Below are positions 35,901 through 53,499 of a stretch of 64,000 bases of DNA, one piece after another. The DNA comes from Planctomycetota bacterium (GTDB taxonomy: Bacteria > Planctomycetota > PLA2 > JAEUHO01): positions 224,001-288,000 of the forward strand of contig CBDCTJ010000007.1 in assembly GCA_965222115.1 (NCBI GenBank), written 5' to 3'. The stretch's first letter is position 1. Each line of letters starts with the position of its first letter. Both the position numbers and the translations under genes were made by a program. Below the pieces are notes generated by a model. The model did no database searches. It had not been told where the DNA came from and worked only from the letters and a program-made list of their open reading frames with translations.

Positions 35901-36517
35901 CAGCCTCGGCTGCGCGGTACGCGTCTTGATCGCGTCCGTAGACGCTCATTGATGAACGACAACACCGGACATATAGACTCTCTCCGTCAGTCGGTCTTGA
36001 TCGCGTCCGTAGACGCTCATTGATGAACGGCCTTAATTAAAGTGGGCGTTGACGTCCGCTGGTAGTCTTGATCGCGTCCGTAGACGCTCATTGATGAACG
36101 ACGCATGCGTTCGCGTCTGCGAGGTGCGCGTCGGTCTTGATCGCGTCCGTAGACGCTCATTGATGAACTTCGTTGCCGGTCGCCATGGTGCTCGCACACC
36201 GCGTCTTGATCGCGTCCGTAGACGCTCATTGATGAACTTGGTCCAGAACCAGCGTGTCGACCAGGCATGGAAGGTCTTGATCGCGTCCGTAGACGCTCAT
36301 TGATGAACGTGGTGATTGCTGTTCAACTATCACCACCAGAGCCGTCTTGATCGCGTCCGTAGACGCTCATTGATGAACGTAAGAGAACATATCAACGAAC
36401 GTAAATTCGAAGTCTTGATCGCGTCCGTAGACGCTCATTGATGAACAATGTGGGGGCACGCTTTACCAGGGTTCGGAAGCCTGTCTTGATCGCGTCCGTA
36501 GACGCTCATTGATGAAC
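32963..36517 (-). CRISPR. CRISPR array, about 50 repeats of 35 bp (GTTCATCAATGAGCGTCTACGGACGCGATCAAGAC), spacers mostly 32-38 bp
   Basis: Repeats counted by eye from 33001 to 36517, plus a partial one at 32963. Degenerate copies cluster at 33001-34148 (trailer). The AAGAC 3' end and cUACGg hairpin indicate minus-strand transcription. Confidence 0.99.
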
Positions 36518-36887
36518 CCCTCAGGGTTCGGTCGAATCTTGCAATTAGCTGTCAGAGAACGAGTTACAACGAATTGGTGTTCCATTGGGGACTCTCAAGG
36601 TGCGTAGATTCCACCACGCGCCTCGTTTCAGCGCTCTTTGCGCCCCATCGCTTTCCGCGCCGGCCGTCAACTTATTGGCTCTGACACGCTTCCTGAAATG
36701 GGGATCTGATTCGACCTTTCGGTCGTCTCGCGGAGCAGGCCGTACCCACGCGGGGCCACAGTCGCCTGCATCTCCTTCATTCTCCGAAATTCAGCCAATC
36801 CTGTCAAGCAGCACCCGGCTGGAGACAGCACCGAATCGTCGGAGAGGCCACGTGGATGGCCTGTGGACGCGAGTTCAGATTGAGACT
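36518..36887 (-). promoter_or_regulatory. CRISPR leader region
   Basis: Apparently non-coding gap between cas2 and the perfectly conserved end of the array; relatively AT-rich next to the first repeat. Confidence 0.75.
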
Positions 36888-37160
36888 CTACAAATAGCGC
36901 ACGCCTCCCGTTGTCACCTTGGTTCGTCGCCAACAGAGCGCGCGCCGCGAAGCGCGCACGTCCATTGGAATGAGGTCAAAGTCGTCGTCAGTGTCGAGGA
37001 GGGCGCCGATGTCTACCAGAAAGTCGTCCAGTTCTTCCCGCGAGACGCGCACTTCAAAGACCGATCGCTGCACACGGCGACCGTAGCGCGAGAGCACGCG
37101 AGCCACGCGGCGCCGAACGCTCGCCGAAGAGATGTCATAGGCGGCGACGTAGTTGCTCAT
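36888..37160 (-). CDS. cas2: CRISPR-associated endonuclease Cas2
   Basis: YVAAYDIS...RRVARVLSRYGRRVQRSVFE; 90 aa; overlaps the cas1 stop. Confidence 0.96.
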   Translation of the reverse strand: MSNYVAAYDISSASVRRRVARVLSRYGRRVQRSVFEVRVSREELDDFLVDIGALLDTDDDFDLIPMDVRASRRALCWRRTKVTTGGVRYL

Positions 37161-39901
37161 GGGTGTCGAAATCCGGGCGCGGGCCGCGTTGGATCGACGA
37201 GATAACGACGCATGGCGCGCGCCAACGCGCGAATGCGTCCATGGTAGGTGAGCGGGTCCTCCCCCTTCCGCAGCACCGTGGGAATGTGAAAGCCCTCGTG
37301 AATGGCAATTCGAAGACGCCTGGCAAGTCGCGGCGACACCGAGACACGAAACGGCCCGAGCCGTGTCTTACGAAAGTCTGAACTCCGTGCAACACGCATC
37401 ACGTCGAGCACACAGCGGTCCATCAAGTGTCGAAATGGCTCCTGAAGATCCGACACCAGTGCATCGTGACCACTGCGCGGGCGATGAAGCACGCCGAGTT
37501 CCGGAAGCAACCCCGCCGACACCACATGCACACGAATCACACGATGAAGGGCCGTCTGCGCGATATTGAGCAGAACATTGACGGGGTCGTTGGCACGCGG
37601 AGCTCGACGCCCTGGAAATGACCATCCCGATGGAAGCCACGACGGAAACAGCTCGTACCACAGCGCCGCGGCGGCGCCTTCCACACCCACGAGCACTTCC
37701 GCCGAGATCGCCGATTCCGCTCGACGAATGTGGGCACGCATCTGTTCCTGGGCATGAGGGTGCTTGCGCGGGCAGCCAAGGGCCCCAATCAGTGCCGCGT
37801 GATTGGCAATTTTGGAGGCGATCAGTTCGCGGGCTGCGGGCAGAGTTCGTTCCGCCTGGCGAACGCAATCGACCTGTGCGGCCACGACGTCAAAGGAGCG
37901 CCTGCCGCCCTCGCCAACCAAGGCCGCCACGTCCCGACCACCCTTGCCGGTCATGGAGAGTGGAATGCGTCGGCGGATCAAGTAGCGAATCGCACGACGG
38001 GAAAGTGACGGATGGCCCAGAACAACGAGGTCGTCGATGTGACTTGTTCCGCACGCGCGCTCTTCGCCGTTCTCGGTGCGCAAGACAAGATTGCCGCGCA
38101 CGGCGTCGATTTCGACGATATCCGATCCCACAATGCCGGTGTCGCCCGTGGGATCTGCCGCCGTCAACGACACCTCACCGGGCAGTCGCCAATCGGGATG
38201 GGCGCGGGAACGCTCGGTACGCGCTTCCCAACCAATGCGACCAAGTGACGTGGGCGCGGGATCGCCGCGCACGTTCCATTGCTTTTGATACTCAAAGGTG
38301 AAGCCAAGAAACTCGAGCGAGGGTCCGATTTCGTGGACGCTTGACTTGGACTCGTTGAGTGCGAGTGCCAGCGCGCGGGCTTCGTCCTTGGCCGCTTGGT
38401 ACATGACCTGCGCTTCTTCTTCCGTCTTCGTAAGCACAACAAAGTCATCGGCATAGCGAATTAGCAAGGCGCCACGGGCCAACATGGCTTCGTCAAATGC
38501 GTCCAGCACGACGTTGGCAAGGAGTGGAGACAGAGGTGCCCCTGTGGGAAGGCCTACCTTTAGCGGCGCCATGGCGCTGCGCACCCAGTTCATAATGAGA
38601 CTTGCCGTGCTCGGAGACCTGAGAAACGCTCGCAGGCGCAACTCACACAAGTCGTGCGGCACATTGTTATAGAAGTCGGCAAAGTCCGACTTCACGGCCC
38701 AGGCGTAGCCGGACTCCTGCGCGCGATGAATACGGGAAAGCGCGTCCACACGCCCGAGGCCGGGGCGAAAGGCAATTGAAGCATCCTCCAGGAGGCATTC
38801 AATCCCGGGAAGGAGGGTGGCGTTAAGAAGACGTTGCAGGGCCATGTCGCGTTTCTTCGGAATACGCAACGACCGGACCTTGCCTGGCTTGGTTTCTACG
38901 TCGATGCGCATCGGTGCCGCGGGTGAATACGTGCCTTGCGCAACTTCCTGCGTGGCCTCCGTGAGTTCACCACTCGGAAGCGCATGCCGTTCGGCCTCGC
39001 GCGAAACTGCGTAGGACGTAAACGCGAGCCGCTCAAGCGACACGGCACGGGTACACGCGTAGGGCTCGGGTCCAAGTTCGGCAATGCGGTAGCGGCCCAG
39101 TCCAAATCGCGTGCCGTTTCCGGCTCCGGCATATTGCCCCAGCACCAGTGCCATGCGGTCGTTGGGTTCCACATCTTGCAACACGACCCGACCCACTGCA
39201 CCGCCTAGCGTCTTGCGCCGCTCCATGGGCCCGTATCCGAGATCGAGCCACACGAGATCCGACGACGTGAGCGTGCCGGTCCGTCGATACGGGGTCGGGT
39301 GCTTCTCAATGAGATTGAGCATCTCCATGCGACGATGCACGCGGCCCAGGAAGGGACCGGGTTCAAAACAGTCCCCATCAAGCCATCGATGCCGTGGGCG
39401 TGTTCGCCCGGCCGTGCGTCGCATGCGCAGGGGTGTCTCGAAGTCAAGTGTAAACGTTCGATGTGCGTCGAGTTTGAATCGTTCTGCTGCAACGCGCTCA
39501 TCGGGTAGCTCAACAAGGGGCGACTCAAAATCCCAGAGTTCGCGTGCGATCAAGTCTTCGACGCGTGTCACGATGAAGTTGCCTCGGAGACGAGTGCCCT
39601 TTGTGCGGCGGGCCGTGCCCATGGCCTGCAGTCCCTGCACGACGCGGGCAAGTTCATCGGCGGCGGCACGCCCATCGCGCGCAATCATGGTGTAGCCAAA
39701 GGCAAAGTTCGCGTCGCGCTCAATCGACGAACGACACTGCTCCGGCGCGTCGAGCAAGAACCCCTCGGGAAACTGATCCGGTTGGTCGAGGGCGAATCCG
39801 TAGGCCGCCGCCGTGAGTGCATAGAGCGCCCCTGCTTGATGGCCCGGCAGCGCGACGTGATCTGTTGCGCGAATCAGAATGCGGACGCGGCAGAGATGCA
39901 C
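37157..39901 (-). CDS. cas1: Cas6-reverse transcriptase-Cas1 fusion
   Basis: GAGGAG RBS then GTG at 39901. Cas6 Gly loop GQYAGAGNGTRFGLG. RT motifs RSLRIP, AFRPG, KSDFADFY, GLPTGAPLSP, RYADDF, FLGF. Cas1 motifs GVEGAAA, DPVNVLLN, GVLH, SDLQEPFR. Confidence 0.95.
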   Translation of the reverse strand: MHLCRVRILIRATDHVALPGHQAGALYALTAAAYGFALDQPDQFPEGFLLDAPEQCRSSIERDANFAFGYTMIARDGRAAADELARVVQGLQAMGTARRTKGTRLRGNFIVTRVEDLIARELWDFESPLVELPDERVAAERFKLDAHRTFTLDFETPLRMRRTAGRTRPRHRWLDGDCFEPGPFLGRVHRRMEMLNLIEKHPTPYRRTGTLTSSDLVWLDLGYGPMERRKTLGGAVGRVVLQDVEPNDRMALVLGQYAGAGNGTRFGLGRYRIAELGPEPYACTRAVSLERLAFTSYAVSREAERHALPSGELTEATQEVAQGTYSPAAPMRIDVETKPGKVRSLRIPKKRDMALQRLLNATLLPGIECLLEDASIAFRPGLGRVDALSRIHRAQESGYAWAVKSDFADFYNNVPHDLCELRLRAFLRSPSTASLIMNWVRSAMAPLKVGLPTGAPLSPLLANVVLDAFDEAMLARGALLIRYADDFVVLTKTEEEAQVMYQAAKDEARALALALNESKSSVHEIGPSLEFLGFTFEYQKQWNVRGDPAPTSLGRIGWEARTERSRAHPDWRLPGEVSLTAADPTGDTGIVGSDIVEIDAVRGNLVLRTENGEERACGTSHIDDLVVLGHPSLSRRAIRYLIRRRIPLSMTGKGGRDVAALVGEGGRRSFDVVAAQVDCVRQAERTLPAARELIASKIANHAALIGALGCPRKHPHAQEQMRAHIRRAESAISAEVLVGVEGAAAALWYELFPSWLPSGWSFPGRRAPRANDPVNVLLNIAQTALHRVIRVHVVSAGLLPELGVLHRPRSGHDALVSDLQEPFRHLMDRCVLDVMRVARSSDFRKTRLGPFRVSVSPRLARRLRIAIHEGFHIPTVLRKGEDPLTYHGRIRALARAMRRYLVDPTRPAPGFRHP

Positions 39902-39918
39902 CTGGATTCTCCTCGTTG

Positions 39919-40863
39919 CTAACTCACGTTCGTTGGTTGTGCCTGGGCTTGGAGCCACGTGTCGATGTGCGCCCGCAGCGACGACAATTCCACCGCCATG
40001 ACGCCAGCATCGCGAAGTCGTCGCACCATGCCACCCCACCTGCGCCGCTCTCGAATGAGGCAAGGAATGGCGACGAGCCACATCTCCGGCAGATCGAAAG
40101 ACCCCGGCATGCGTACGCGGTGGAGAATGGAAAGCGCGCGCTTGCATTGCTTCTCATCAATGCGTCTCGCGCTTCCGCTCTTGGCCTCGATGCGGAGCAG
40201 CGAGACCTTAGAAGGTGGCAGATCAATGCGGGCCACGACATCAAACTCAATCTGCCGCAGGAGCCGTCGCACGCGCCGACTCTGACTACGTCCATGCACA
40301 CGATGGTGCGTGGAAACGGCTAGATTCTTAATCGTGGCTACCGATACATTTCGCATGCGAGCCATGTCGTGCAGCGCGCGCTCAATGGCCACGGTCAACC
40401 AATCGCCGAGGACAAAGTTCAGCGCCTCACCACGCACGATTTCGTAGTCAACGTGCACCAGCCGCTTGCCTTGGTAGGCGGCCTGGATGGAGCCTCGCTT
40501 GATAGCGCCCGCGTCAACGAGTCGATGGGTGAATTCCAAAAGAACGTCAGCGCGCACGGCGTCCGGCACCTCCCGACGTCGTCGCGTCGTTGCCTGACGT
40601 ATGCGTGTCTGTCCGCGTGCCTCGCACGTTCGAAGCCGCGAAAGGATGGGATCCAGTTCACGGGCGTGCTCGGCCAGATAATCGGCGAGGGCGATGAAGT
40701 CTTGGGAGAAGGAATGCGCATGGTGCGCATTGAGATTGAACGAGCGCATAAACCGACGTAGCTGCGCCGCGCGCAGCGCGTCGTCCAGTTCGTCGTCCCG
40801 CCATACGCGCCTGCCTGAAGGCGGGGACGCTAGCTGCCATGATCGGGCGGGACTCATAGTCAC
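39919..40863 (-). CDS. Card1/Can2-like PD-(D/E)XK nuclease domain protein with no evident CARF domain
   Basis: NFVLGDWL, IEFDVV and IEAKSG resemble the Card1-type restriction-endonuclease-like motifs; overlaps the csx1 stop. Confidence 0.65.
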   Translation of the reverse strand: MTMSPARSWQLASPPSGRRVWRDDELDDALRAAQLRRFMRSFNLNAHHAHSFSQDFIALADYLAEHARELDPILSRLRTCEARGQTRIRQATTRRRREVPDAVRADVLLEFTHRLVDAGAIKRGSIQAAYQGKRLVHVDYEIVRGEALNFVLGDWLTVAIERALHDMARMRNVSVATIKNLAVSTHHRVHGRSQSRRVRRLLRQIEFDVVARIDLPPSKVSLLRIEAKSGSARRIDEKQCKRALSILHRVRMPGSFDLPEMWLVAIPCLIRERRRWGGMVRRLRDAGVMAVELSSLRAHIDTWLQAQAQPTNVS

Positions 40864-42668
40864 GGGTACTCACGAAACTGTACGTGACGGAATACAGACG
40901 TCTTGTGCACCGCGCCCTCTTGATCCTCCTTCGACGATGCGACGCGTTTCGTTGTGGCATACAATGGCAACACGCCACGATTTCGTGCGGCGTCCACTGC
41001 AACGAACACCGCACCCGGTTCGCCCTGAACCAGAATCAAGTCGCCTGTCCTGGCTTCTTCATCCAACCACGATTCGATGAGGGAGCGAAGGCCCTTGAAC
41101 ACGGATTTGCTCGTTCCCTCGGGCGAAACGGAGGACCACGCAGCAGCCAGCGTGGGCGGTGGGAAAACCAAATGTTCGCTTGGTATCTCGAAGCGCTTGT
41201 GTATCTCTTGGCGCTGCACTTCGGTAAGTTCGTGATTGAGCAGCACAATGAGCCGCTTGTTTTCTTCGTTCACCTTGAGGGACGACACGTCCACCTGCAT
41301 AGCAAGCTCGATGGCGGCGCGCAATCCTTCGAAATAGGCCTCCGCATCGGACACGATGGACTCAGACGCGTTTCTTTTTGAGGTCCAGCCATGATCGAGA
41401 CCATTTCGGGTATCGCGAAGGCTCTTGGCAAAGGACCGGAGTGTATCGATCGCGCCTACGTCTTTGAGCGCCTCGTAGTAGGGGCGCAGTTCTTTGTGCA
41501 TATTGGCGTCGTGTTGGTTGCTTACTCGAAATTCTGCCTCTTCTTTCTCAACCATCTTCATGAACAGGTCTGCTTTACGGCGCCCATCCAGTCCCTTGCG
41601 CGTGGTGTATTGAATCCTCCCCGCGTTCGCGCCACGCATGCCGAGCGACCCAATCGTCTCCACCATCGCTGTGCATGCCTGCATGGTGAGCTTGTGGTCG
41701 AGAAGGAGGCGGGCATAGGCCAACTGCGTCTCGAAATAGGCCTCGTCGAAGAAGCCAGAGATGGGCTCCGTGGAAGCCAAATCGCCAAATTTGTCAAGCA
41801 CCAACTGAAGCAGCGTCTTGGCAACGATGTTGCCTTCGGCTGTTGCTGCCTCAAGTCGCTTTGAAATGAGTGAGATCCCCGCACGCGCCTTCTCGGCGAT
41901 GTTGTGCATCTCCACATTTCGAATCGCATCCGTAATGCTCTGCAGCGCTTCCGCGATGGCCTTGTCCCGAAATCCAGCAACATTCAGCGCCGTGTCGCGG
42001 TCGGCTAGGGAAGCAAGCTTGCTCGCATCGGCGTCGTCCACAAGGCAAGCGACGGCATCCGTCCAATCGGCAATCTCGTAGAAACGTCTGTAGTCCATCA
42101 TGGGCGTGGGCGTGGTGGCGTCGCCATCAAACAGCCCGTAGAGCACGTGCCTCAAACGCACACCGCGCGTGAGGCGCAAAAACTGCAAGGCGCTTGACAC
42201 GACGACCGGCAGCGCGCGAAACCCATGGGTCATGTCCATGACCAGTTCACAGTCGCGCGGAACTTCGTTGAGCAACATCTGAAACGTCTGCCACTGCGCT
42301 TCATTTGATTGATCTTCGGAGAGCGAGACGAAGCTCAGCTCAATGGAAGACCCCTCATCCGTTGCACGCGCCACGCACGCTGCCAGCCCGTCTTTGAGCC
42401 TTGCCTCGCCAGTTGGTGTTTTGTCCCAATGTTTGGCCTTCGCAGAAGGCGTGCCGAATACGCTCACTCGCTTCAGACGCGGCCCCACATCCGCATCTTC
42501 GAGAAGCAGCTTGACTTGCGCGATCTGAACATACTGCGCCCGGCATTCTCCCTTGCCCTCCCAGGAGTACGTCGTTTCTTGGTAGTTGCCAATACCAAGA
42601 AAGCTGACGTAGTGGACCGGGAGTTCGCCGTCACTGGTATTGTCCTTCGGGGCGGGGCCACTAGGCAT
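40860..42668 (-). CDS. csx1: Csx1 (TM1812-type CARF + HEPN) fused to a Csx20-like ring-nuclease domain
   Basis: SFLGIGNY, MDMTHGFRALP, HEPN RNGLDH; C-terminal LLNHELTEVQ...GDLILVQGE...YATTKR...FRHVQFREY, typical of Csx20. Confidence 0.88.
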   Translation of the reverse strand: MPSGPAPKDNTSDGELPVHYVSFLGIGNYQETTYSWEGKGECRAQYVQIAQVKLLLEDADVGPRLKRVSVFGTPSAKAKHWDKTPTGEARLKDGLAACVARATDEGSSIELSFVSLSEDQSNEAQWQTFQMLLNEVPRDCELVMDMTHGFRALPVVVSSALQFLRLTRGVRLRHVLYGLFDGDATTPTPMMDYRRFYEIADWTDAVACLVDDADASKLASLADRDTALNVAGFRDKAIAEALQSITDAIRNVEMHNIAEKARAGISLISKRLEAATAEGNIVAKTLLQLVLDKFGDLASTEPISGFFDEAYFETQLAYARLLLDHKLTMQACTAMVETIGSLGMRGANAGRIQYTTRKGLDGRRKADLFMKMVEKEEAEFRVSNQHDANMHKELRPYYEALKDVGAIDTLRSFAKSLRDTRNGLDHGWTSKRNASESIVSDAEAYFEGLRAAIELAMQVDVSSLKVNEENKRLIVLLNHELTEVQRQEIHKRFEIPSEHLVFPPPTLAAAWSSVSPEGTSKSVFKGLRSLIESWLDEEARTGDLILVQGEPGAVFVAVDAARNRGVLPLYATTKRVASSKEDQEGAVHKTSVFRHVQFREYP

Positions 42669-43920
42669 TGGGGTCGATCTCGTCGGCAAACGCGCTTGCG
42701 TCGTTCCAAGCCTTCTTCCACTTCTTCTTTTTGTCACGAATTCGTTTTGCACACTTGGCGCGGACTTCGTCGGGTGCGTTTCGAATGTCCGTACCCATGA
42801 CGTCAATGATGTGCTTGAGTCGATCTCTCCAGGTGACATTGCCTTGGGGGCCCGTAGCGCGAATATCGCTGTCTCGGTGTTCCTGCAATATAGCGATCAC
42901 GTCATCAAGCAAATCAGACTTCACAACCGCCTTGGGCACGTAGATCGTCTCGCCCTCGAGTACGACCATACGTCCGTAGCCCGCCGACGTCTTCCCACCA
43001 ATCCCCATCGATTCCAGCGCTTCGCTGAGTTCATTGAGCGCAAAGCGTTTACCCGCGGCATCGGTGCCGGATACCGCCAACAAAAACTTCGTGCCCGGCC
43101 TGATCGTGAGAAAGTTCACGGGATTGGGCGAGTCATAGTCGTTGGGCATCGAGCGCTCCCCGCTCGACTGTCCCTGGCCGTAGTAGGACTTTTGATGCAC
43201 GGTGAGAACGTCTCGGACATATGGCGTCTTGGGCTCAGACTTTGTTGGTGGCACCATCCATGCATCCATGAAGTAGAGCTCGCCCCGGCGCTCGCCCGCC
43301 CGCGGCGCTTCACCATCGGGCACCGGAAACAGCTTGTTCATGTCCGCATCAGACTGTGCTGCGGGCGAACCGAAGAGCCACCGAATGGCATCTCCGGGGC
43401 CGTGCTTGATAGCGTTTCCATCTTTGGCAACGGGTTGAAATGTAGAACGATCCGACTCACTGTGCTTCTCATCGAGAGGATGGAGGAGTGGCTCGCCGGT
43501 CAGACGCGGCCCGTACTTCTTTACGAGGGCATGTTGCAGTAGGCCCTTTAGCGAGGAGCCGGAGAGTATGGGTGTGCCCCACGTGTGGTGAACCGTGAGC
43601 CCCACTTCCGATGCCGATGGATTGCCATGACCAATGAGCAGGCGTGACACCGCCTCTACTGTGTAAGTAAACGTGGCGCCGTGCGCGTGCAGTGACTTCT
43701 TCCACCGCTCAAAGGCTTGACTGTAGGCGTCGCCAACCTTGATGCCCTCAAGCGCTCGATACCACTGCGACTGCTCGGTGATACTTACCTTGCCAAAGTC
43801 GTCGCTGGCGGGGTCGGTAGTAATCGGCGCCAACCGGTCGTAGACCAATCCGGCGTGCGCATCGTTAGGGTAGTTCGGCGCATGAACGCCCTCTAATTCT
43901 CGTATCGCCTTACGCATCAC
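42661..43920 (-). CDS. cmr6: Type III-B RAMP Cmr6
   Basis: RLLIGHGNPS, EVGLTVHHTWGTP, GSSLKG, DVLTVHQ, DSPNPV, GIGGKTSAGYG. Confidence 0.95.
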   Translation of the reverse strand: MMRKAIRELEGVHAPNYPNDAHAGLVYDRLAPITTDPASDDFGKVSITEQSQWYRALEGIKVGDAYSQAFERWKKSLHAHGATFTYTVEAVSRLLIGHGNPSASEVGLTVHHTWGTPILSGSSLKGLLQHALVKKYGPRLTGEPLLHPLDEKHSESDRSTFQPVAKDGNAIKHGPGDAIRWLFGSPAAQSDADMNKLFPVPDGEAPRAGERRGELYFMDAWMVPPTKSEPKTPYVRDVLTVHQKSYYGQGQSSGERSMPNDYDSPNPVNFLTIRPGTKFLLAVSGTDAAGKRFALNELSEALESMGIGGKTSAGYGRMVVLEGETIYVPKAVVKSDLLDDVIAILQEHRDSDIRATGPQGNVTWRDRLKHIIDVMGTDIRNAPDEVRAKCAKRIRDKKKKWKKAWNDASAFADEIDPNA

Positions 43921-44311
43921 TTGGTTCCGCCTGTGAATCGTCTTCCGCCATTGAGTCCCGGGCCTGCATTGCCCGCTTAAACCATTGCGCCAAGTAGAGG
44001 CACTCGCGCGTGGTCACCATGTAGGTATCGAGGTCCATGTTCTTGACGCGCGTAAACATGTCCGAAAGCGAATCCCCCACATTGAGTGTGCTCGGAAATG
44101 ACTTGGCCAAATCGGTACCGAAGCGCTCCCGCACCTTCTCAGGCTTATAGCGCTGCACAAACGCAAGCGCGCCTACGAGTCCACTGCGAACCACATTCGG
44201 CCCCAAGCTATTGACCAGTACCTTGTAGCCATCCCAGTAGTCACGCTTCTTCGGAACTGCGCCAACGGCCTTGTATGCAAGTTCGGCACGTTTCTGATCT
44301 CTCGTCATCAT
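43910..44311 (-). CDS. cmr5: Type III-B small subunit Cmr5
   Basis: TRDQKRAELAY, SGLVGALAF, TRECL...WFKR; position between cmr4 and cmr6. Confidence 0.92.
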   Translation of the reverse strand: MMTRDQKRAELAYKAVGAVPKKRDYWDGYKVLVNSLGPNVVRSGLVGALAFVQRYKPEKVRERFGTDLAKSFPSTLNVGDSLSDMFTRVKNMDLDTYMVTTRECLYLAQWFKRAMQARDSMAEDDSQAEPSDA

Positions 44312-45204
44312 GATGCACCCCCTCCCTTCTGCGCGCGAAGCACGCGGCAAACGCCTCGTCCCACCGTGGCCTTGCCTCCAAGCTGAAGAACGAGCTTGTC
44401 GGTGGGCATGCCGGCGTCGAGTACGCTCTCTTCGTCGAGACTTGAGCCGTTTCTGCGCGAACGCTCCGCAGCCGCTTGACCCACGAGCAGCGTTTCGGGT
44501 GGGAGGCTCTCCTCATACCAGAGCGCCCCATCTTTCACGGTGCCTGTCTTGTGGTCAATACTGTTGCGCGCATCAACCTGCGTCGCGGTTTCCCACAGGT
44601 AGGCCATGGTGTCGTCATCCACAACGACAAAGCGACGCGTAAACGAGCGTTGTTCGCCACTGTCGGCCCCGTCGGGGAAGACCCGCACCGCGATGTACTC
44701 GGCCCACGCGGATACTTCGGCACTCGTCGAACTTCGCAAGTCAAGATCCTCAAGCACTACGTGTGACTTGAGTGCCACGTCCGACGCGCCAGCCGTAAGT
44801 GCCTTGCGATTCTCAACCGACACGCTGCCAGGGGGCGGCGTGGCGTCTTCGCGAAAGTCACGCGCGGCGAGCGACAGCAGCAGGGGGGAAGTTACCCACG
44901 CAAATACACCCCTGAGCGCACGAACGGGAAGCGCCAAGAGACGCGCATCGCCAACCACGATGGCGCCCGCGTGCTCACTTGCACCCTTTGAGTCGGGCCC
45001 AAACACGGCTTTCCAGGTTTCGTCGTCGCAGGCCGCGTCGTTCCGCGCGCGGTCGCGCAACACCCCCTTGATGCTCGAACCGGGCACCATCGGAATGCCC
45101 GTGGCCTTCATGCGCGCAATCGGCAAATCAACAATGCCGACTCCCTGCCCCGTTCCCGCATGCAGCGGGGACAGCGCGTGCACGATGTACGATGTTCTGA
45201 TCAT
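44308..45204 (-). CDS. cmr4: Type III-B RAMP Cmr4
   Basis: HALSPLHAGTG, IVDLPIAR (catalytic Asp), PGSSIKG, GALWYEESLPPET, QLGGKATVGRG. Confidence 0.96.
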   Translation of the reverse strand: MIRTSYIVHALSPLHAGTGQGVGIVDLPIARMKATGIPMVPGSSIKGVLRDRARNDAACDDETWKAVFGPDSKGASEHAGAIVVGDARLLALPVRALRGVFAWVTSPLLLSLAARDFREDATPPPGSVSVENRKALTAGASDVALKSHVVLEDLDLRSSTSAEVSAWAEYIAVRVFPDGADSGEQRSFTRRFVVVDDDTMAYLWETATQVDARNSIDHKTGTVKDGALWYEESLPPETLLVGQAAAERSRRNGSSLDEESVLDAGMPTDKLVLQLGGKATVGRGVCRVLRAQKGGGAS

Positions 45205-45301
45205 GACTACTCCTTCGTGGCGCCGCATTGGCCGAGGTATTGCCCACGCCTACGGACGCACTCGCACATTGCGTTCTCTCGTGTGAATGATTGGATTCGC
45301 T

Positions 45302-46564
45302 TCAAGTTGCAGACGCTTCAGGGCCCGCGATGAGCAGACCGAACCCGTCGTCGGTCTGTTGCCCCCACTGCGCAAGCCAAAGCGCTTGGATTTGCTCGGG
45401 CGAAAACGAAAGCCCGTCTTCGCGCTCAATGCCAAAGACACTGCCAGGCGGCAGGGCCCATAAGACGGTGCGGAACCCGCGGTTGCCTGAGGAGCTGTTC
45501 TGCAGTGACCATCCCGCCACCGGCATGGCGCGGTTCATCATTGCGCCGGTAATTCGGATGCGGCCTATGCCCGCCGGTCCATCGCCCACAAGCCCATCGC
45601 CGTCGGCGGCGAATCCATCGGGGCACCATCCGTCTTCAAAAATGGTGGGTGTCACGGTGTACAGACGCAGCGCACGCGGCTGCAACTTCGCAGCATGTGT
45701 GAGAAGCGCTTCGGGGCACGAGCCAAAAGCCTCGCTCGCCAACGAAACGTTCGCGAGACGGCGATCCCCGGCAAGCGTTGCACCGGTGACGCACGCAACG
45801 AGCGATTGATGTACGTCGTCGGTAGCCACGCCAAGGGCCATGGCCCAGCGATGCACAGGGGCGCGCTCGGGATCCTTGCCGTCAGTTTCCGCGCGGACAA
45901 GCGTCTCTCGAAACTCACCACTCCACAACATGGACTCTTCGGCGGTAAACGTGGTCGGGTCAATTGCCACATGGGTGTCGATACGTGAATGGGGCTCATG
46001 GCCCACGACAAACTGTTTAGGCGGTGGCGCCCTGTCGTCTTGCCCCATAAGCCAAGCGAGCATCTCTTCTTGCGTCCACCACGCAGGACCCCGAGCCGGT
46101 TTCCCGTCGTGCTCCATGAACCCAAGCCGAAGTGCGCTTGCACGCGCGTCGTCTCGACCGTCGATCACCGCCACGGAGGGATCGGGGCGCCACCAACGCA
46201 ATCGCACGGGCGCCTTTTCGGATTGCACATGCACCGCGTCAAAGGGCGCCGGCCACATGATGTGCTCGTCCGTCCACCGATCACACGTTGCAGGTCCACG
46301 CAAAGCAAGGGAGGCGCGAATCTTGAGTTCATCCTTGAGGGCTAGCCACTCGTCGGCTGTATTCACCTTTGAGCGATCGCGCTCCCGCACTCGTCCGGTT
46401 GCGGTACAGAGCGCACCTCGTGCGGTACGCGGCATGGGCCACGGCAAGCTGAAGGCACGGTTGGTTGAACCGGCGTACCACCCCCGCCCGTCTTTGGCGA
46501 AGAAGCCCGTACGGGGCGCAAGCACGGCCCAATGAGATATCGATGGATGCGTTTGAGTATTCAT
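45302..46564 (-). CDS. cmr3: Type III-B RAMP Cmr3
   Basis: FAKDGR, PWPMPRT, LAGDRR, TPTIFEDGW, VAGW, PPGSVF, DGFG. Confidence 0.92.
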   Translation of the reverse strand: MNTQTHPSISHWAVLAPRTGFFAKDGRGWYAGSTNRAFSLPWPMPRTARGALCTATGRVRERDRSKVNTADEWLALKDELKIRASLALRGPATCDRWTDEHIMWPAPFDAVHVQSEKAPVRLRWWRPDPSVAVIDGRDDARASALRLGFMEHDGKPARGPAWWTQEEMLAWLMGQDDRAPPPKQFVVGHEPHSRIDTHVAIDPTTFTAEESMLWSGEFRETLVRAETDGKDPERAPVHRWAMALGVATDDVHQSLVACVTGATLAGDRRLANVSLASEAFGSCPEALLTHAAKLQPRALRLYTVTPTIFEDGWCPDGFAADGDGLVGDGPAGIGRIRITGAMMNRAMPVAGWSLQNSSSGNRGFRTVLWALPPGSVFGIEREDGLSFSPEQIQALWLAQWGQQTDDGFGLLIAGPEASAT

Positions 46565-48468
46565 GCGGACACCCCTTTCGCAGACGATGTATACGTCGCG
46601 CGCTGAATCTCAAGTGCGATGACGTGTAGCTGAATCCACGACTGAACCTTTGCCAGTGCCTCTTTGTAGGAGGTCATCTGATCAAGTCCCAATAGGCCGT
46701 AATCGACGAGCGAGCGGCGCGCTCCGCTCCCGTCCCGGCGATTCAAAGTCCGCAGGACGTCTCGCGCGAGAATGCCAACCCACGTCTTGGATGCGCCCGG
46801 GTCGGTCACATGACTTGCACGCGGCATGCGAGCCAGGGAATCGAGTACTTGATGAAGTTTGGTGAGCGGAACCTCGGCGCTTGTCGTTGCGTCGCGACGA
46901 ATGCGTGTTTTGGCGCTCTCGAGTTCGGTCACGGGATCGCTAGGCCACTGCTGGCGCCACTCATGAGACGCGCCCCCGCGCTTGTCGAAGCGAATGGCCA
47001 ATGCGTTTCGCTGGTCCCGCTTCGATGCCTGCGCGTTCTTGGCAAGTCGCTCGGCATTTCGCCCCAAGTCCAGAAGTTCCCCCATACCCGTCAGCACGTG
47101 ACCGATGCCAATGCCCACCGAGAGCGTGGGTGCGTCGTTTCCGTCCGGGACGCAAGGCGCCATTTCTCGTTCAAACAGATCGTGAAGCGCTTTGGCACAC
47201 GACACCACCGTCTCCAGAGGTGCAAACGCGAGCACATCGTCACCTCCGGCATAGATGAGTGAACCGTCGTGTCTCTGAACTTCGTCTTCAACCTTCCCCG
47301 CGAAGTTAGACAGGCACCTTGAAACATTGCGCAGACCGTTTGCGCCATCCAACGTGGAAACGCTTTGAATAAGCTTGCCCATATTGTCCCCATCCGCAAC
47401 GAGGACGGCGACGTGATGGGGTGGTTCGACGGGACGCTCTACCTCGATGGCGCGCGCGACCGCACTTTGTGCGGGGTCGATATAGGAATCCTTGAAGTCC
47501 TCTTGAATCCGGGTGGCAAGCTCACCGGAGACATCGCCAATCTCTTTGCAGAGCGAAGCAAGACGACTCTCGATGAGTGCTTGAGCATCTACCGCGAGGA
47601 TCTTCCCGTGCGGGGAATTCGGTTTCAGCGAGCCGAACTTCTTGGCTTGGGGATCGCGACTTAGCTCGTCGAGGGCGTTGGCGCCTTTTGCGTCTCGCCG
47701 CGCTGCTCGAAGCCAAGTGGCCAACGCAACATTGGCCACCGGAGTGAACTGCTCAGGATCACCTCCGCAGCGCTTGACGATGCCAATGGCATCCAGGTGC
47801 TCCGTATTCGGTATGCGATACCTCTCCGCGGCCTTGGCGAAGGTAGTTTGTTTGCGATCGCCGGCAAGGACGCTGTAACGACCGCCGTCGAGACTGCTTG
47901 TGGGAACGCCCGCGCGAACGGAACTACGGGGATCTTGCGCAAAGTCCTTTAGCGTTTTCCGGGCGGCGATCGCTGTATCGAGTTGCATCCGCGCTTGATC
48001 GAAGTCATCGGCGGCAGGCGTCCAGGCGGCATAGATTTCAAGCAGCGAATCGACCTGGTGTCGCCACGCATCGTCTGCCGATCCGTCGATCAAAGGGCCC
48101 GCGTGTATGTCACCTTTGACGTCGGTGGCAATTTGCTTCCAACGCTCACGGGCCGCTTTGACGCACGCACGACCGGCCTGCTCCGGATCGATGTCGCTCG
48201 GCAACTGGGCAAGGATCTTGTTGGATACCGAATCATCGGAATCCTCGTCCAGCGCTGTATCGCCCTTGTCAAAGGGCGGGAAAATCAACGTGGCGTCAAA
48301 CCGATTGGCCAACTCCGCGGCCGCCGCCTTGGAGATTTCACTCAACACGTGACTGCCAAACCACAGGTCTCGAGAGCGGCGCGCCTGGGCAATAAAGTCC
48401 TGCACGGGACCCAGGGCGACGGCCAAGAGATGACCTGAAGAAACTTGCGTGGTGTGTTCGCTCGCCAT
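46561..48468 (-). CDS. cas10: Cas10/Cmr2 without HD domain, cyclase motif intact
   Basis: Starts directly at LGPVQDFIAQARRSRDLWFGS; ADGDNMG and YAGGDD palm motifs; 635 aa. Confidence 0.96.
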   Translation of the reverse strand: MASEHTTQVSSGHLLAVALGPVQDFIAQARRSRDLWFGSHVLSEISKAAAAELANRFDATLIFPPFDKGDTALDEDSDDSVSNKILAQLPSDIDPEQAGRACVKAARERWKQIATDVKGDIHAGPLIDGSADDAWRHQVDSLLEIYAAWTPAADDFDQARMQLDTAIAARKTLKDFAQDPRSSVRAGVPTSSLDGGRYSVLAGDRKQTTFAKAAERYRIPNTEHLDAIGIVKRCGGDPEQFTPVANVALATWLRAARRDAKGANALDELSRDPQAKKFGSLKPNSPHGKILAVDAQALIESRLASLCKEIGDVSGELATRIQEDFKDSYIDPAQSAVARAIEVERPVEPPHHVAVLVADGDNMGKLIQSVSTLDGANGLRNVSRCLSNFAGKVEDEVQRHDGSLIYAGGDDVLAFAPLETVVSCAKALHDLFEREMAPCVPDGNDAPTLSVGIGIGHVLTGMGELLDLGRNAERLAKNAQASKRDQRNALAIRFDKRGGASHEWRQQWPSDPVTELESAKTRIRRDATTSAEVPLTKLHQVLDSLARMPRASHVTDPGASKTWVGILARDVLRTLNRRDGSGARRSLVDYGLLGLDQMTSYKEALAKVQSWIQLHVIALEIQRATYTSSAKGVSA

Positions 48469-48471
48469 GAG

Positions 48472-49884
48472 CTAGTCCTCCACTTTCAAATTGTGATTGT
48501 GTTTCCTGAGCCACGTAAAGAAGGCCTTTCGCAGTCGAAAGCCCGCGGGCTCCTTCCGCGCCGCTTCCAGCGGTTCGAATTGCGCTGTGTCCTTCGCTCC
48601 AAGCAGCTTGTCGAACGGGGCGGCCGTCTTTCCGCGAATGGGTCGCTTGCCGTGGCAGGGCACGACTTCCCCGCCTTTCGGATAGCCGCGGTGAAGCCAC
48701 AGTGCAAACGGAGCAAACTTCCCATTGAGTATTTGAAGAGGACCTACAATTAGTGGACTTGCCAAACGGTCGTGGGGATCTCTTTCATCGGCTCGACGCC
48801 ACTGCAACTGGAAGTTCCTGGGCTCGTCGTATCGTCCGCCGTTACGCCCCTTCTTTTGCCACTGGGTTTGAATGGGCAACCCAAATCCCGCGCGGGGCCA
48901 CGCCGGATCCGGATTGTGATAGGGCTTATGATCACGCGTCTTTCCCTCAATGTGCCGCATCTTGTCAGGCTCGGGCCAGTTACTGATGCTGGGACGATTT
49001 GCTTCGCCCCTTCGGCGAGCGAACTGCTTGTCGTGCTTATTAAGATCCCCAACAGGGGGCTGTGCCTGTCGGAAGTCGGATAACCAACGCAGGGCATTCC
49101 ATGCCGCAGCTTCGCCTTTAGGGGAGGCGGTTCCGAGGGCCAACCCAGCACCCTTTAACCGAAACATATCGGTAAGCGGCTCCGACGCGGTGCGGCCAAG
49201 AGAAAGGTTGTCAAACAATATTCGCACAGCCTCAATCTTTGCTTCGCTGGGGAGCCATTTGCTTAGCTCCTCGTTTTCAACGTCGATCAACCGCAATGCA
49301 CCAAGCCCTCGACGCGTTCGTCCGCCGTATCCACCAAACAGGATCCAGGCGCGCAAGGCGTCGCGCACCTGCGCCTCGACGTCGTCGGTCTTGGGTCCAC
49401 GGACAGTAAGCTTGAACTTGAGGCCGGGGGTCCAACGCTCGGCCGCGGGCGTTCCATCGCTTTGGGATCTCGCCGTCCACAGGGCGTAAAACCCGTCGTC
49501 TCTGAAGCCAACTTCTTCGCGTCTGATCTTGCTCTTCTCGACGCTGCCAACCTGAACGCGAACCGCTGAACGTACTACCCCCTTTTCTTCTCCGTCGGTC
49601 CCCCCCCAGATCTGGGATTCCATCTTGTAGAGTTTCTCCGCATCGACATCTTCGCCATTCATCGGCAGCTCGGGCAGCGTAGCGCGCCACCAAGCACGCA
49701 GATGGCCGCGAATGGTTGCGCCACGAATGGGCTCATCCTCATCGACCCTTCGTGTTTCCGTGCCGCCCCCCAGAATGGGCGTCACGGTTTCTAGATGCAA
49801 CGTGATCGAAAACTCACCCGTGTCGTCTCGGGGATTCGGAATCGACAGTTCGGAGAACGACGTTGGAAATTGAGACATAGTCAT
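48472..49884 (-). CDS. cmr1: Type III-B RAMP Cmr1
   Basis: VTPILGGG, IRGHLRAWWR, FGGYGGRTRRGLG, PRAGFGLPI, RLASPL. Confidence 0.94.
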   Translation of the reverse strand: MTMSQFPTSFSELSIPNPRDDTGEFSITLHLETVTPILGGGTETRRVDEDEPIRGATIRGHLRAWWRATLPELPMNGEDVDAEKLYKMESQIWGGTDGEEKGVVRSAVRVQVGSVEKSKIRREEVGFRDDGFYALWTARSQSDGTPAAERWTPGLKFKLTVRGPKTDDVEAQVRDALRAWILFGGYGGRTRRGLGALRLIDVENEELSKWLPSEAKIEAVRILFDNLSLGRTASEPLTDMFRLKGAGLALGTASPKGEAAAWNALRWLSDFRQAQPPVGDLNKHDKQFARRRGEANRPSISNWPEPDKMRHIEGKTRDHKPYHNPDPAWPRAGFGLPIQTQWQKKGRNGGRYDEPRNFQLQWRRADERDPHDRLASPLIVGPLQILNGKFAPFALWLHRGYPKGGEVVPCHGKRPIRGKTAAPFDKLLGAKDTAQFEPLEAARKEPAGFRLRKAFFTWLRKHNHNLKVED

Positions 49885-50248: not shown

Positions 50249-50608
50249 CTACAGGGGCGAGGCCACACAACGTACAGCCGACGTCGTTACGAGACGCAAG
50301 GCGTGTTTCTTGGCAGCCGGTACGTCTCCAATGAGTGCTGCAATGGCCTGTTCGAGTTCCTCACGCGTGCAGGCAACCGTTGCACGCTGTTGTAGCGCCA
50401 CACACAGGGCACTACCAAGCGCGACGGCGCCCGAGCATCCACGCACCCGGTAGGCGGCGTCCACGATCACGTTGTCTTTGACAATCAATTGAAGATTGAA
50501 CTCGTCACCACAAACGTTGTCGATTGCGCGTACCGCGTGGGTGGCCTCGGCCAACAGGCCGACGTGGCGCGGATTTCGAGCGTGATCGAGAAACTGCGGC
50601 GAGAGCAT
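50249..50608 (-). CDS. IscU/NifU-N-like Fe-S scaffold protein
   Basis: FLDHARNPRHVG, NVCGD, VRGC, GDVPAAKKH. Confidence 0.85.
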   Translation of the reverse strand: MLSPQFLDHARNPRHVGLLAEATHAVRAIDNVCGDEFNLQLIVKDNVIVDAAYRVRGCSGAVALGSALCVALQQRATVACTREELEQAIAALIGDVPAAKKHALRLVTTSAVRCVASPL

Positions 50609-50694
50609 GATGTTTCGTGTCTCATGGTCGCCGATCGATCGCAAGTTCTCGCGCGGCCCTCGACGGGCGTGGCGATGCCCGTAGGATGATTCGC

Positions 50695-51333
50695 ATGGCA
50701 AAACTTGTTGGCACCAGCGGACCGGTCGAAGGCAAGACGTTTGAAATCGACAAGGGCGCAACCTTTGGGCGCGAGGCGCACAATACCTACCCGTTGCAGG
50801 GCGTACGGGGGTGTTCGCGCGACCATGCCAAGGTGTGGCAAGTAGGTGCACGCCAATACTCCATCGCCGACGTGGGCAGCACCAACGGCACGCTTGTAAA
50901 CAACGAGCGCGTCTCGCGCGCCAACCTCAAAGAGGGCGACGTGATTCAAATCGGTGAGGCCTCGTTTCGCTTTGAACTCGGCGAGGCGGAAAAGCCCAAG
51001 CCCAAAGTGGTTGACGCGGCCGAGAAGGCGCGACGAGAACAGGCGGCAGCCGCCCTTCGTGGCGACCCATCGAGCGCGAGTAGTGCAGGATCACAATCGC
51101 CCGAACCTTCGCTGCAAGTCAAACAGCGCATCTTGCAATACAACAAAAAGTCCAAGGGCGGATCGCAACTCGGATGGGACATGTCGCAAACGGCAGGTCC
51201 CGTTCGTTACATCATGATGGGTGTAGCGGTTGCGCTGTGCGTCGCGCTCTTCTTTCTCATGAAGAACCTTGCGACAGGCGACGGCGAGCCCACGCGTAGG
51301 AACACCGAGGACTCCTCATTCGAGGGCGACTAA
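50695..51333 (+). CDS. FHA domain protein with C-terminal TM helix
   Basis: FGR, SRDHA, DVGSTNGTLVN, LKEGDVIQIG. Confidence 0.92.
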   Translation: MAKLVGTSGPVEGKTFEIDKGATFGREAHNTYPLQGVRGCSRDHAKVWQVGARQYSIADVGSTNGTLVNNERVSRANLKEGDVIQIGEASFRFELGEAEKPKPKVVDAAEKARREQAAAALRGDPSSASSAGSQSPEPSLQVKQRILQYNKKSKGGSQLGWDMSQTAGPVRYIMMGVAVALCVALFFLMKNLATGDGEPTRRNTEDSSFEGD

Positions 51334-52808: not shown

Positions 52809-53414
52809 CTACGGCGTGGCTTGGAACAGCGCCACCGTGGAAGCCACGAACGGCCGGGCCGCGCCCGACACGTTTGAGGCACCGCGTGCGAGCGTATAGA
52901 ACGTATGCGTACCCGCAGCAACCGGAAACACGCGCATGACGGTGTAAGGCTGGTAATACTGATCCGTGCCGACGCCTTGGCTTCGACCCAGGATAACTGT
53001 CCCATCCGATGTGAGCGGCAACGATACGTTTTGATCAGACACGCCCATGAAGATCGTTCGATCATCTTCAAAGAACAGGCAGTGCCCCGTAGAGATGACC
53101 ACGACGTTTCCGGCCGTCGGCGCGTCAATCGTAACGCTATCGACTTCTTTGACGCCAGTCTCGAGATTCGCAAAGTCTACGGACGCGTTGTTCTCGATCA
53201 GTTCAACACGAGATGCATCATCAATTCGTGCATCATTGTCATTGATCGCAGCGGCATGTGCCGCAAAGTTGGCGTTGACTTCTGCTGCCACAGCGGTCGT
53301 GCCTGCAACAAAGGTGTTGGGCGTTGCCACCGAACTAGCCATCGCGACTGCGACACCAAATAGTGCCAGCGGTAGTACGCTCATACCCAGTACGAATGGT
53401 GTGTTGTGTTTCAT
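52809..53414 (-). CDS. Secreted fibre-like protein, paralogue 2
   Basis: Signal peptide; PNTFVAGTTAVAAEVNANF; short coiled coil; beta-rich C-domain; AAAGGAG RBS. Confidence 0.78.
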   Translation of the reverse strand: MKHNTPFVLGMSVLPLALFGVAVAMASSVATPNTFVAGTTAVAAEVNANFAAHAAAINDNDARIDDASRVELIENNASVDFANLETGVKEVDSVTIDAPTAGNVVVISTGHCLFFEDDRTIFMGVSDQNVSLPLTSDGTVILGRSQGVGTDQYYQPYTVMRVFPVAAGTHTFYTLARGASNVSGAARPFVASTVALFQATP

Positions 53415-53499
53415 GAGAAGAGCTCCTTTCGAGCGGTACATGAGTTGATCTGGCAGTTCCACGACACCAACTCTTAGTAGATTCACATTGAGATGCGCG

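Follow-up and report, generated by a model that had tools for sequence, protein, structure and literature searches.

In a 64,000-nucleotide (nt) stretch of a Planctomycetota genome assembly (GenBank GCA_965222115.1, contig CBDCTJ010000007.1, positions 224,001 to 288,000; here, the window), we found a locus that is very probably a complete type III-B (Cmr) CRISPR-Cas system, equipped with a Cas6-reverse transcriptase (RT)-Cas1 adaptation module and signaling via the palm domain of Cas10. The interpretation given in an initial annotation of this DNA, which was made from the sequence alone, is sound as biology, and the kind of system is already known. What is new here is a nuclease with the Can2/Card1 fold that lacks a CARF sensor domain, a newest spacer that perfectly matches the host genome, and a piece of the host aconitase gene within one unit of the CRISPR array.

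According to the list of open reading frames (ORFs), positions 36888 to 49884 hold ten consecutive ORFs, all on the minus strand, as is every locus feature described below. Two parts of the locus lie beyond this range, namely, the CRISPR array (33001 to 36517) and the gene of a transmembrane (TM)-CARF protein (31662 to 32795). Read along the minus strand, the order is cmr1, cas10, cmr3, cmr4, cmr5, cmr6, csx1-csx20, the sensor-less nuclease gene, cas6-RT-cas1, cas2, leader, array, and TM-CARF gene. Family assignments were made with Pfam and NCBIfam models at their curated bit score cutoffs and with PADLOC profiles; all parts named in the initial annotation are present, and most of the matches exceed the cutoffs widely. 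The reading frames of all 11 protein genes are open, and every catalytic motif that was checked is intact. The GC content of the locus is 0.590 (versus 0.587 for the genome), and the GC content at third codon positions (GC3) is coding-like in all of its genes. The true starts of cas6-RT-cas1, csx1-csx20, and the nuclease gene lie downstream of the longest-ORF starts. The tight spacing counted toward the reading as one locus: the nuclease ATG (40857) sits 2 nt past the csx1-csx20 stop codon, and 17 nt separate the nuclease stop codon from the cas6-RT-cas1 GTG (39901), which is preceded by GAGGAG. Among contigs from one study, an 11,162-nt contig of sample X1 spans positions 36490 to 47651 with one differing letter, and the array is covered only in small parts by the contig pieces listed from that study. 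One joint of read contigs within the array (35604 to 35534) is ambiguous, as 36 letters fit either side; the joints 44422 to 49241 and 45574 to 46680, with sides of just 22 and 21 letters, were set aside.

All six genes of the complete cmr1-to-cmr6 set that the initial annotation had listed were recovered by profiles. Cmr1 (48472 to 49884; 470 amino acids [aa]) matches TIGR01894 (36.3 bits against a cutoff of 28.65) and PADLOC Cmr1 (4.9e-22). Cmr4 (44308 to 45228) matches TIGR02580 (1.9e-66; 224.8 bits against 87) and has the conserved Asp in a VDLP motif (45121 to 45132), while Cmr5 (43910 to 44350), whose start codon is uncertain, matches Pfam Cas_Cmr5 (1e-15) and TIGR01881 (35 bits against 27.9), and Cmr6 (42661 to 43920) matches TIGR01898 (112.6 bits against 51.1) and PADLOC Cmr6 (1e-35). 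Cmr3 (45302 to 46564) stays under its NCBIfam cutoff (25.3 against 100.4) but passes Pfam (Cas_Cmr3, 9.5e-36; 124.4 bits against 21) and PADLOC (Cmr3, 2.3e-45). The 635-aa Cas10/Cmr2 protein (46561 to 48468) was identified by NCBIfam TIGR02577 (168.5 bits against 79.4) and the Pfam palm2 domain (1.1e-29), with the GGDD motif at residues 408 to 411 (47236 to 47247). Thus, a Cas10 with a cyclase palm, the other five Cmr proteins encoded in one operon, and an adjacent array whose repeat matches those of type III-linked relatives are all present, as they should be in a type III-B system.

The same annotation had described this Cas10 as devoid of an HD domain, and the domain boundaries indicate that this is so. 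The Pfam domain Cmr2_N begins at residue 14, and no HD dipeptide occurs before residue 400. The closest solved relative, a 612-aa III-B Cas10, is aligned from its residue 22, and the equivalent N-terminal motif of a 1,004-aa Cas10 is found at residues 251 to 304, past the HD region of that protein. In a survey of type III loci, an HD domain was recognized in 437 of 1,113 (39%) (PMC11229360).

The adaptation module also agrees with what had been annotated, a Cas6-RT(YADD)-Cas1 fusion followed by cas2. The fusion gene (37157 to 39901; 914 aa from the GTG) was assigned by Pfam, NCBIfam, PADLOC, and its motifs; Pfam finds Cas6 (34.6 bits against a cutoff of 25), RVT_1 (4.9e-27), and Cas1 (1e-46). 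The YADD motif of the RT lies at residues 483 to 486 of the 914-aa form (38444 to 38455), and a G-rich loop of Cas6 (GLGRY) and the RT motifs SPLLAN and FLGF were found as well, followed by the Cas1 domain. The cas2 gene (36888 to 37160; 90 aa; Pfam CRISPR_Cas2, 1.2e-12; TIGR01573, 40.2 bits against 24.5; PADLOC Cas2_IIIb, 3.4e-13) overlaps the 3' end of the fusion gene. Cas6, a group II intron-like RT with an intact active site, and Cas1 are therefore joined in one polypeptide with cas2 adjoining, which defines the module. Its best solved relative is the Cas6-RT-Cas1 protein of Thiomicrospira (7kft; E value of 2.4e-55, query residues 218 to 867), and the integrase that this protein forms with Cas2 (7kft/7kfu; PMC8102632) has the same three-domain order, with the RT and Cas1 motifs conserved.

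Relatives of the fusion protein with 34 to 40% identity were found at 13 loci in a scan of one genome per species, and 11 of the 13 carry Planctomycetota-type labels. When the window proteins were compared with these loci by tblastn, cas2 was detected in 11, the TM-CARF gene in two, and Cmr4 and Cmr6 in two, while the nuclease and Csx1-Csx20 were each detected in none. Because many of the contigs are short, such absences are weak evidence. Ten ORFs upstream of RT-Cas1 in seven of the related loci were scanned: four were informative as type III or accessory genes, one matched IetS profiles, and five had no match. The informative four encode a protein that matches the TIR part of a SAVED-TIR profile, a CorA protein, a DHH protein, and a type III-D Cas7; the CorA and DHH proteins belong to one locus (L011). 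This content is in line with the published account of the RT adaptation module as an autonomous unit that pairs with varied type III effector modules (PMC5513706).

The array, which the initial annotation leaves unmentioned, contains 50 repeats of 35 nt with spacers mostly of 32 to 38 nt, and a putative leader of 370 nt (36518 to 36887), placed by its position and by the gradient of repeat degeneracy, lies between cas2 and the newest perfect repeat. On the cas2 side, 33 consecutive repeats (repeats 18 to 50) are perfect, and 12 of repeats 1 to 17, at the low coordinates, have one to six changes. New spacers should thus enter at the cas2 side, because the repeats are perfect there and degenerate at the far end. 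Arrays are present in eight of the 13 related loci, and in seven of these eight the repeat on the cas strand consists of GT, a stem-loop, and ATTGAAAC or a close variant. The minus-strand repeat of the window, GTTCATCAATGAGCGTCTACGGACGCGATCAAGAC, is laid out alike: its stem has 5 bp and is followed by 9 nt on the 3' side; because of this match, we infer that the array is read on the minus strand, with the 8-nt tag AUCAAGAC.

Self-matches were sought by comparing the 49 inter-repeat segments with the whole 4.55-Mb host assembly (G000; contigs C1, C3, and C7 below). The newest spacer (36447 to 36482) is identical in 36 of 36 nt to G000 C7:1109513-1109548, and a second search gave the same result. 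Its source is intergenic, about 165 nt past the stop codon of a minus-strand ORF of 423 aa, and overlaps one copy of a short hairpin-bearing repeated element. Intergenic elements of this sort (about 65 to 80 nt, with a small hairpin) occur at G000 C7:1109468-1109575 and in at least five other places (C7:1017455, 1412248, and 2980979; C1:56846 and 649919). The newest spacer would be self-targeting if the complementary strand of its source were transcribed.

Host sequence is also found in a malformed unit of the array (35545 to 35649), in which one repeat is reduced to its last 10 nt (plus strand). In place of the lost part of the repeat, this unit holds a piece of 37 nt that is identical to sequence of the host aconitase gene (G000 C7:2858138-2858174). 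The piece is bracketed by two copies of one 24-nt part-spacer, and the unit length is nearly kept (71 nt). Faulty integration, template switching, or recombination may have produced this unit. In the array transcript the piece would be antisense to aconitase mRNA, and it should not become a guide, because the tag of the upstream repeat is absent. In a further spacer of 34 nt (35752 to 35785), a run of 26 nt is identical to part of the gene of an ion transport protein (G000 C3:170785-170810; Pfam Ion_trans, 3.2e-35); the 8 nt that would adjoin the CRISPR RNA (crRNA) tag do not match. The other self-matches, of 16 to 21 nt, were regarded as chance. Host sequence in both the newest spacer and the aberrant unit fits promiscuous uptake: in Marinomonas mediterranea, host RNAs were taken as spacers upon overexpression of RT-Cas1 (PMC5576922), and for natural RT-linked arrays almost no spacer sources have been traced in the published surveys, as reported there (PMC5513706).

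The array was also compared with 400 other genomes of the phylum, of which 47 gave short matches with an E value of 0.01 or less; these were treated as compositional noise. Five of the 47 were inspected (L036 to L040): the matches fell into unrelated ORFs, two extended into repeat sequence, and one was in a spacer of low complexity. Matches near the aconitase-derived piece are expected, because the aconitase gene is conserved.

Two genes of the locus encode effectors of the CARF type. The first, csx1-csx20 (40860 to 42668; 602 aa from the ATG at 42668), specifies a CARF domain with a DMTH motif, a HEPN domain with the motif RNGLDH (41391 to 41408), and a C-terminal Csx20 ring nuclease domain. 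It matches PADLOC CARF2--CARF_HEPN (5.8e-103) and CARF_HEPN_CSX20 (1.5e-70; profile positions 5 to 498 of 498), as well as the NCBIfam models for Csx20 (NF040559; 110.3 bits against 70, positions 1 to 124 of 124), TIGR02221 (96.5 bits against 76.25), and TIGR02549. The fusion named in the initial annotation is thereby substantiated, as the protein has both the DxTHG-type CARF motif and the HEPN R-x4-6-H of Csx1 and a full-length Csx20 match above the cutoff. A search for homologous proteins with the Csx20 part returned the query alone. Csx1-type genes were found in 15 of the 400 other genomes of the phylum. In none of the 15 did a single protein match the Csx20 part of the profile as well, with one match extending to position 470 of 498; in two of the 400, the Csx20 part is matched by short ORFs of its own (147 and 160 aa). 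No Csx1-type gene was found among the 16 genomes of the same family that were searched. Csx20 degrades cyclic tetra-adenylate (cA4) in vitro and is strongly associated with Csx1 (PMC12409355), so the Csx1-Csx20 fusion can be viewed as a self-limiting RNase. It resembles other fusions of Csx1 with a ring nuclease (Csx1-Crn2; PADLOC CARF2--CARF_HEPN_CSX20), which likewise combine a cA4-type CARF-HEPN RNase with a cA4-degrading domain of its own. Csx20 itself is a cA4 ring nuclease, that is, an off-switch or reset device and no further effector.

The second is the TM-CARF gene (377 aa from the ATG at 32795), which the initial annotation had correctly named but listed under positions 36888 to 49884; its actual site is beyond the array on the same strand. 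Four predicted membrane helices precede the C-terminal CARF domain, which has a DITGG motif (31797 to 31811), and PADLOC matches are to CARF8--CARF_TM (9.9e-18) and TM+CARF (2.2e-15). Hydropathy windows were computed, and in an AlphaFold2 model based on four sequences, four long helices (residues 31 to 155) precede an alpha/beta domain. In the structural alignment (VIA), the top match is Cam1 (8t66_B; Z score of 14.8, root mean square deviation [rmsd] of 2.6, 142 aligned residues, model residues 164 to 368), a second Cam1 entry follows (Z score of 14.5, 138 aligned residues), and all 50 rows listed are CARF proteins. Identity with Cam1 in this alignment is 17%; at the sequence level, no solved chain was matched, and a search for homologous proteins returned the query alone. 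Homologs adjoin Cas6-RT-Cas1 in the two related loci mentioned above, one of which keeps the order cas2, array, TM-CARF, and two of the 400 genomes of the phylum gave matches. Like the window protein, Cam1 has membrane helices at the N terminus and CARF at the C terminus; it differs in having 206 residues (chain numbering) versus 377 aa with four predicted helices. It is a membrane-depolarizing TM-CARF effector (PMC10808066) that is activated by cA4 and occurs with other effectors in about half of the cases (PMC11229360). The window protein thus resembles Cam1, and cA4-gated membrane depolarization is a putative role for it. The "layered effector set" of the initial annotation has to be revised: the Csx20 domain is a reset device, and the nuclease has no sensor.

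This nuclease, a protein of 312 aa (39919 to 40857) that had been annotated as a PD-(D/E)xK protein, can now be defined more sharply as a Can2/Card1-type nuclease without a CARF sensor. It has the motifs GDWL (40396 to 40407), E-F-D (40240 to 40248), and E-A-K-S-G (40174 to 40188), and its ORF shows coding-like periodicity of GC content at the three codon positions. No Pfam, NCBIfam, or PADLOC model matched it, and a word-indexed search of 5.8 billion proteins returned only the protein itself. A HMMER search of 1.84 billion representatives yielded two distant relatives, P0002 (1.1e-05) and P0003 (3.7e-04). The three proteins align over their whole lengths and have in common G-D-W-L, E-x-D, E-x-K-S-G, and one Gln; E204, D206, E224, and K226 are invariant in this three-sequence alignment.

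The structural evidence is consistent. With the AlphaFold model of the nuclease (mean pLDDT score of 65.8; pTM score of 0.66), Foldseek retrieved VC1899 (2.7e-11) and Can2 (7.1e-09), followed by Cdn1 and Card1, and the VIA alignments gave Z scores between 12.6 and 16.5 (16.5 for Cdn1, 15.3 for Can2, 14.4 for VC1899, and 12.9 for Card1). In 12 of 13 entries, model residues from about 28 to 32 up to about 294 to 308 are paired with the chain from about residue 131 to 154 to its end; the exception is one Cdn1 entry that spans chain residues 1 to 403 with an rmsd of 5.1. In Can2 of S. thermosulfidooxidans, CARF comprises residues 3 to 151 and the nuclease domain residues 166 to 366 (PMC7969007). 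Because the alignment falls past the CARF region of Can2 and Card1, the whole 312-aa protein corresponds to the nuclease domain alone. A profile made from the three sequences (A1) matched only VC1899 among the solved chains (E value of 0.052), with the three motifs aligned. P0002 hits PADLOC CARF4--CARF_PDDEXK in its nuclease portion (positions 229 to 347 of 364; 1.4e-08) and, below threshold, Pfam Card1_endonuc, and in a protein language model atlas the nuclease is near the Card1-like and NERD clusters.

Can2, Card1, and Cdn1 and the window protein thus share the fold of the nuclease domain, including an extra helical motif, the E-x-D, E-x-K, and G-[DE]-W-L motifs of a C-terminal PD-(D/E)xK domain, and a location in type III loci. 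They differ in that the N-terminal cA4-binding CARF domain is present only in the former, with the window protein aligning only to chain residues from about 140 to 400. Since Can2 is defined in the literature by CARF plus nuclease, the window protein is not a Can2, and our limited literature search found no description of a CARF-less nuclease of the Can2/Card1 type.

Other searches with this family gave little. The nuclease had no match in plasmid records (tblastn), and profile A1 had two marginal matches in the 400 genomes of the phylum (E values of 9.5e-4 and 8.8e-3), each with an internal stop codon, which were taken as chance. Comparison of A1 with three unassigned ORFs upstream of RT-Cas1 in loci L003 and L010 (hhalign) gave probabilities of at most 0.2%. 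For the genomic context of P0002 and P0003, no match was obtained in metagenome contigs (queries A1 and P0002) or viral contigs (queries P0002 and P0003). A two-copy complex prediction of the nuclease scored 0.00, which is evidence neither way.

The window repeats the architecture of M. mediterranea almost gene for gene, namely, that of the type III-B operon with (Cas6-)RT-Cas1 that Silas et al. reportedly described in strain MMB-1 in 2016; the comparison concerns architecture. Both have six cmr genes, a Cas10 without an evident HD domain, RT-Cas1 and Cas2 beside the array, host-derived spacers, a PD-DExK gene in the operon (Marme_0670 in MMB-1), and one further accessory gene. In MMB-1, Marme_0670 presumably adjoins RT-Cas1 directly, as judged from consecutive gene numbers. 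Both genomes also have a second, type I system (I-F in MMB-1 and I-C here). The type I-C locus of the present genome (L034; G000 C7:863346-873139) encodes Cas3, Cas5c, Cas8c, Cas7c, Cas4, and Cas1c, and its array has about 30 repeats of a sequence that differs from that of the III-B array. The window differs from MMB-1 in the added Cam1-like TM-CARF gene past the array, in its second accessory gene (csx1-csx20 versus Marme_0671), and in the host phylum, as judged by the labels of the relatives.

For the M. mediterranea system, it is reported that the HD domain of Cmr2 "is not evident," that a change of GGDD to GGAA abolishes interference and Cmr4 D26A does not, that overexpression of Marme_0671 is toxic, that spacers are acquired from RNA and DNA, and that plasmid elimination is transcription dependent (PMC5576922). 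The Cas6 domain of its fusion protein is active and is needed for RT activity (bioRxiv 2023.09.01.555893). Hence, the view of the initial annotation, to which this effector combination was not known as described in a probable planctomycete, is weakened, because the MMB-1 operon has the same ingredients. In addition, multieffector loci with HD-less Cas10 are common, with Csx1 alongside other effectors in 127 of 411 loci (PMC11229360), and a CARF_HEPN_CSX20 model already exists in PADLOC. That annotation had itself held that an identical architecture, already characterized, would speak against it, and the M. mediterranea operon comes near to being one.

There are different possible explanations for the presence of the nuclease. 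We tentatively favor that it is an accessory of the adaptation side and the positional counterpart of Marme_0670, which is handled with RT-Cas1 and Cas2 as an adaptation component in M. mediterranea (PMC5576922) and is tabulated as "PD-DExK, possible nuclease" in a survey of type III accessory genes (PMC6546367). Like that accessory type (Shah et al. 2018, cluster 45), the window protein is a PD-DExK protein in a type III locus with RT-Cas1, a likeness of position and label. It is possible, yet rather doubtful, that the protein is instead an interference effector of the Can2/Card1 type without its own CARF domain, which is switched on in trans by the Csx20 domain upstream or by another CARF protein and adds DNA or RNA cutting to the cA4 response. 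In fold and in motifs it agrees with the nuclease domain of Can2/Card1, the gene order of Csx20 domain followed by nuclease mimics the CARF-then-nuclease order in Can2, and all three members of the family are CARF-less yet keep the catalytic residues; the Can2 family, moreover, is described as having no ring nuclease activity of its own and occurs with ring nucleases in 66% of loci (PMC12409355). However, Csx20 is a cA4-destroying enzyme and no known sensor, and the corresponding PD-DExK gene of M. mediterranea is handled within the adaptation set. A stop-broken fusion of Csx20 and nuclease was considered and rejected, because the two are in different frames and a second stop codon follows in the csx1 frame. 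Without CARF, the nuclease cannot sense cA4 alone, so any part that it plays in the signaling layer is putative. A role on neither side would be similarly doubtful.

The family assignments, open genes, and catalytic motifs are read from the sequence, whereas each step of the mechanism is derived from homology. In the system that we favor, Cas6-RT-Cas1 and Cas2 would insert spacers at the leader end (36517/36518), from RNA via the RT and from DNA, and the Cas6 domain would cut the repeat to leave the 8-nt 5' tag. Cmr1 to Cmr6 with crRNA would then bind complementary transcripts, with Cmr4 cutting RNA and Cas10 making cyclic oligoadenylate at its GGDD palm, the latter because there is no HD DNase and signaling would be the output of Cas10. 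Since Csx1, Csx20, and proteins of the Cam1 type are each linked to cA4, this molecule is the most likely messenger. It would switch on the HEPN RNase of Csx1 and the Cam1-like membrane protein, and the Csx20 domain fused to Csx1 would degrade it and reset the system. An RNA-centered immunity that learns from RNA, senses RNA, and acts through signaling over Cas10 DNase, as initially proposed, fits the domain content and the M. mediterranea system, but "RNA-centered" is too narrow, since the model uses DNA too.

It is improbable that the signal is instead cyclic triadenylate (cA3), cyclic hexa-adenylate (cA6), or the S-adenosylmethionine-AMP conjugate (SAM-AMP). The related locus L011 has CorA and a DHH protein, a pairing that is typical of SAM-AMP systems, and Cam1 was crystallized with cA6 as well as cA4 (8t66, 8t65). 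For Csx20, degradation of cA3 was also observed when the protein concentration was tenfold higher (PMC12409355). On the other hand, the Csx1 family is defined as cA4 activated and Csx20 is described as cA4 specific (PMC12409355, PMC11229360), and PADLOC detected no CorA, NucC, or SAVED gene in the window locus.

That the locus is a decaying or silent relic, with adaptation or interference dead and the self-matching spacer tolerated for that reason, is very unlikely: the newest spacer with its full identity to the host genome, the malformed array unit, and the lack of a Csx1-type gene in all 16 same-family genomes, so that the locus is not conserved among its kin, would fit this idea, but the 11 protein genes are open with intact catalytic motifs, the 33 leader-side repeats are perfect, GC3 is coding-like throughout, and self-derived spacers are expected of an active RT-Cas1 (PMC5576922).

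Several observations nevertheless weigh against a functional system as proposed above. The mechanistic steps all depend on homologs. By our reading, no protective anti-tag lies beside the source of the newest spacer; given the perfect self-match, an active system would harm its own cell if the complementary strand of this site were transcribed, and interference is therefore weak or that strand is silent. A megablast comparison of the spacers with phage and plasmid records gave no match. The Pfam Cas6 model recognizes just the C-terminal half of its domain (residues 234 to 353 of the long ORF), and the alignment with 7kft begins at query residue 218, leaving the N-terminal approximately 217 residues, the first half of the Cas6 domain, unaligned. 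No C-x-x-C motif was found in Cas10. Finally, the nuclease has a homolog in none of the 13 related RT-Cas1 loci and no credible one in the 400 genomes of the phylum; it is thus not a constant companion of this clade of RT-Cas1, and this speaks against an essential role in adaptation.

The genes flanking the locus are ordinary chromosomal ones and encode isocitrate dehydrogenase, a NifU-like protein, an FHA protein, and glycosyltransferases. Just upstream of cmr1, the NifU-like ORF (50249 to 50851, minus strand) and an ORF for an FHA domain plus a membrane helix (50617 to 51333, plus strand) overlap on opposite strands; hence, one or both of these genes must be shorter than the longest ORF. Between positions 30000 and 51000, Rfam models at gathering thresholds gave no match. 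On the plus strand at 28584 to 30172, a small Ras/Arf-like GTPase, which has a long tail of low complexity and ends in a hydrophobic segment, is followed by a Roadblock/LC7 protein; together they look like an MglA/MglB-like pair. Two adjacent minus-strand ORFs (52809 to 53594 and 53500 to 54363) share a near-identical sequence of about 40 residues, preceded in each by a hydrophobic N-terminal segment, and appear to be tandem paralogs of a secreted or membrane protein. A 692-aa ORF (61160 to 63238, plus strand) shows a weak partial match to the anti-phage ProA model (1.2e-12; 46 bits against a cutoff of 1,500).

RT-linked type III systems are, to our knowledge, the only known cellular route to a heritable record of RNA, and they are the basis of RNA-recording tools. 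The present locus extends the Cas6-RT-Cas1 kind to a Planctomycetota-labeled clade, 34 to 40% identical to its nearest species-level relatives. It also brings together, in a compact natural set, a Cas10 without HD, the self-limiting Csx1-Csx20 fusion, a membrane effector resembling Cam1, and a Can2-type nuclease devoid of a sensor. The newest spacer and the malformed unit trace to the host genome, unlike nearly all RT-linked spacers surveyed so far (PMC5513706). In the window, the PD-(D/E)xK nuclease encoded with RT-Cas1 has a recognizable fold. It is conceivable, though on balance unlikely, that this nuclease is the founding member of a rare family of the Can2/Card1 type, the members of which have lost CARF and act beside RT-Cas1 in the slot of Marme_0670, conserved by position. 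If so, the nuclease might cut host or invader nucleic acid to prespacer-sized pieces or remove RNA after cDNA synthesis. An "effector" nuclease fold would then be tied to the acquisition of spacers from RNA, with the self-derived newest spacer and the aconitase fragment as its natural traces.

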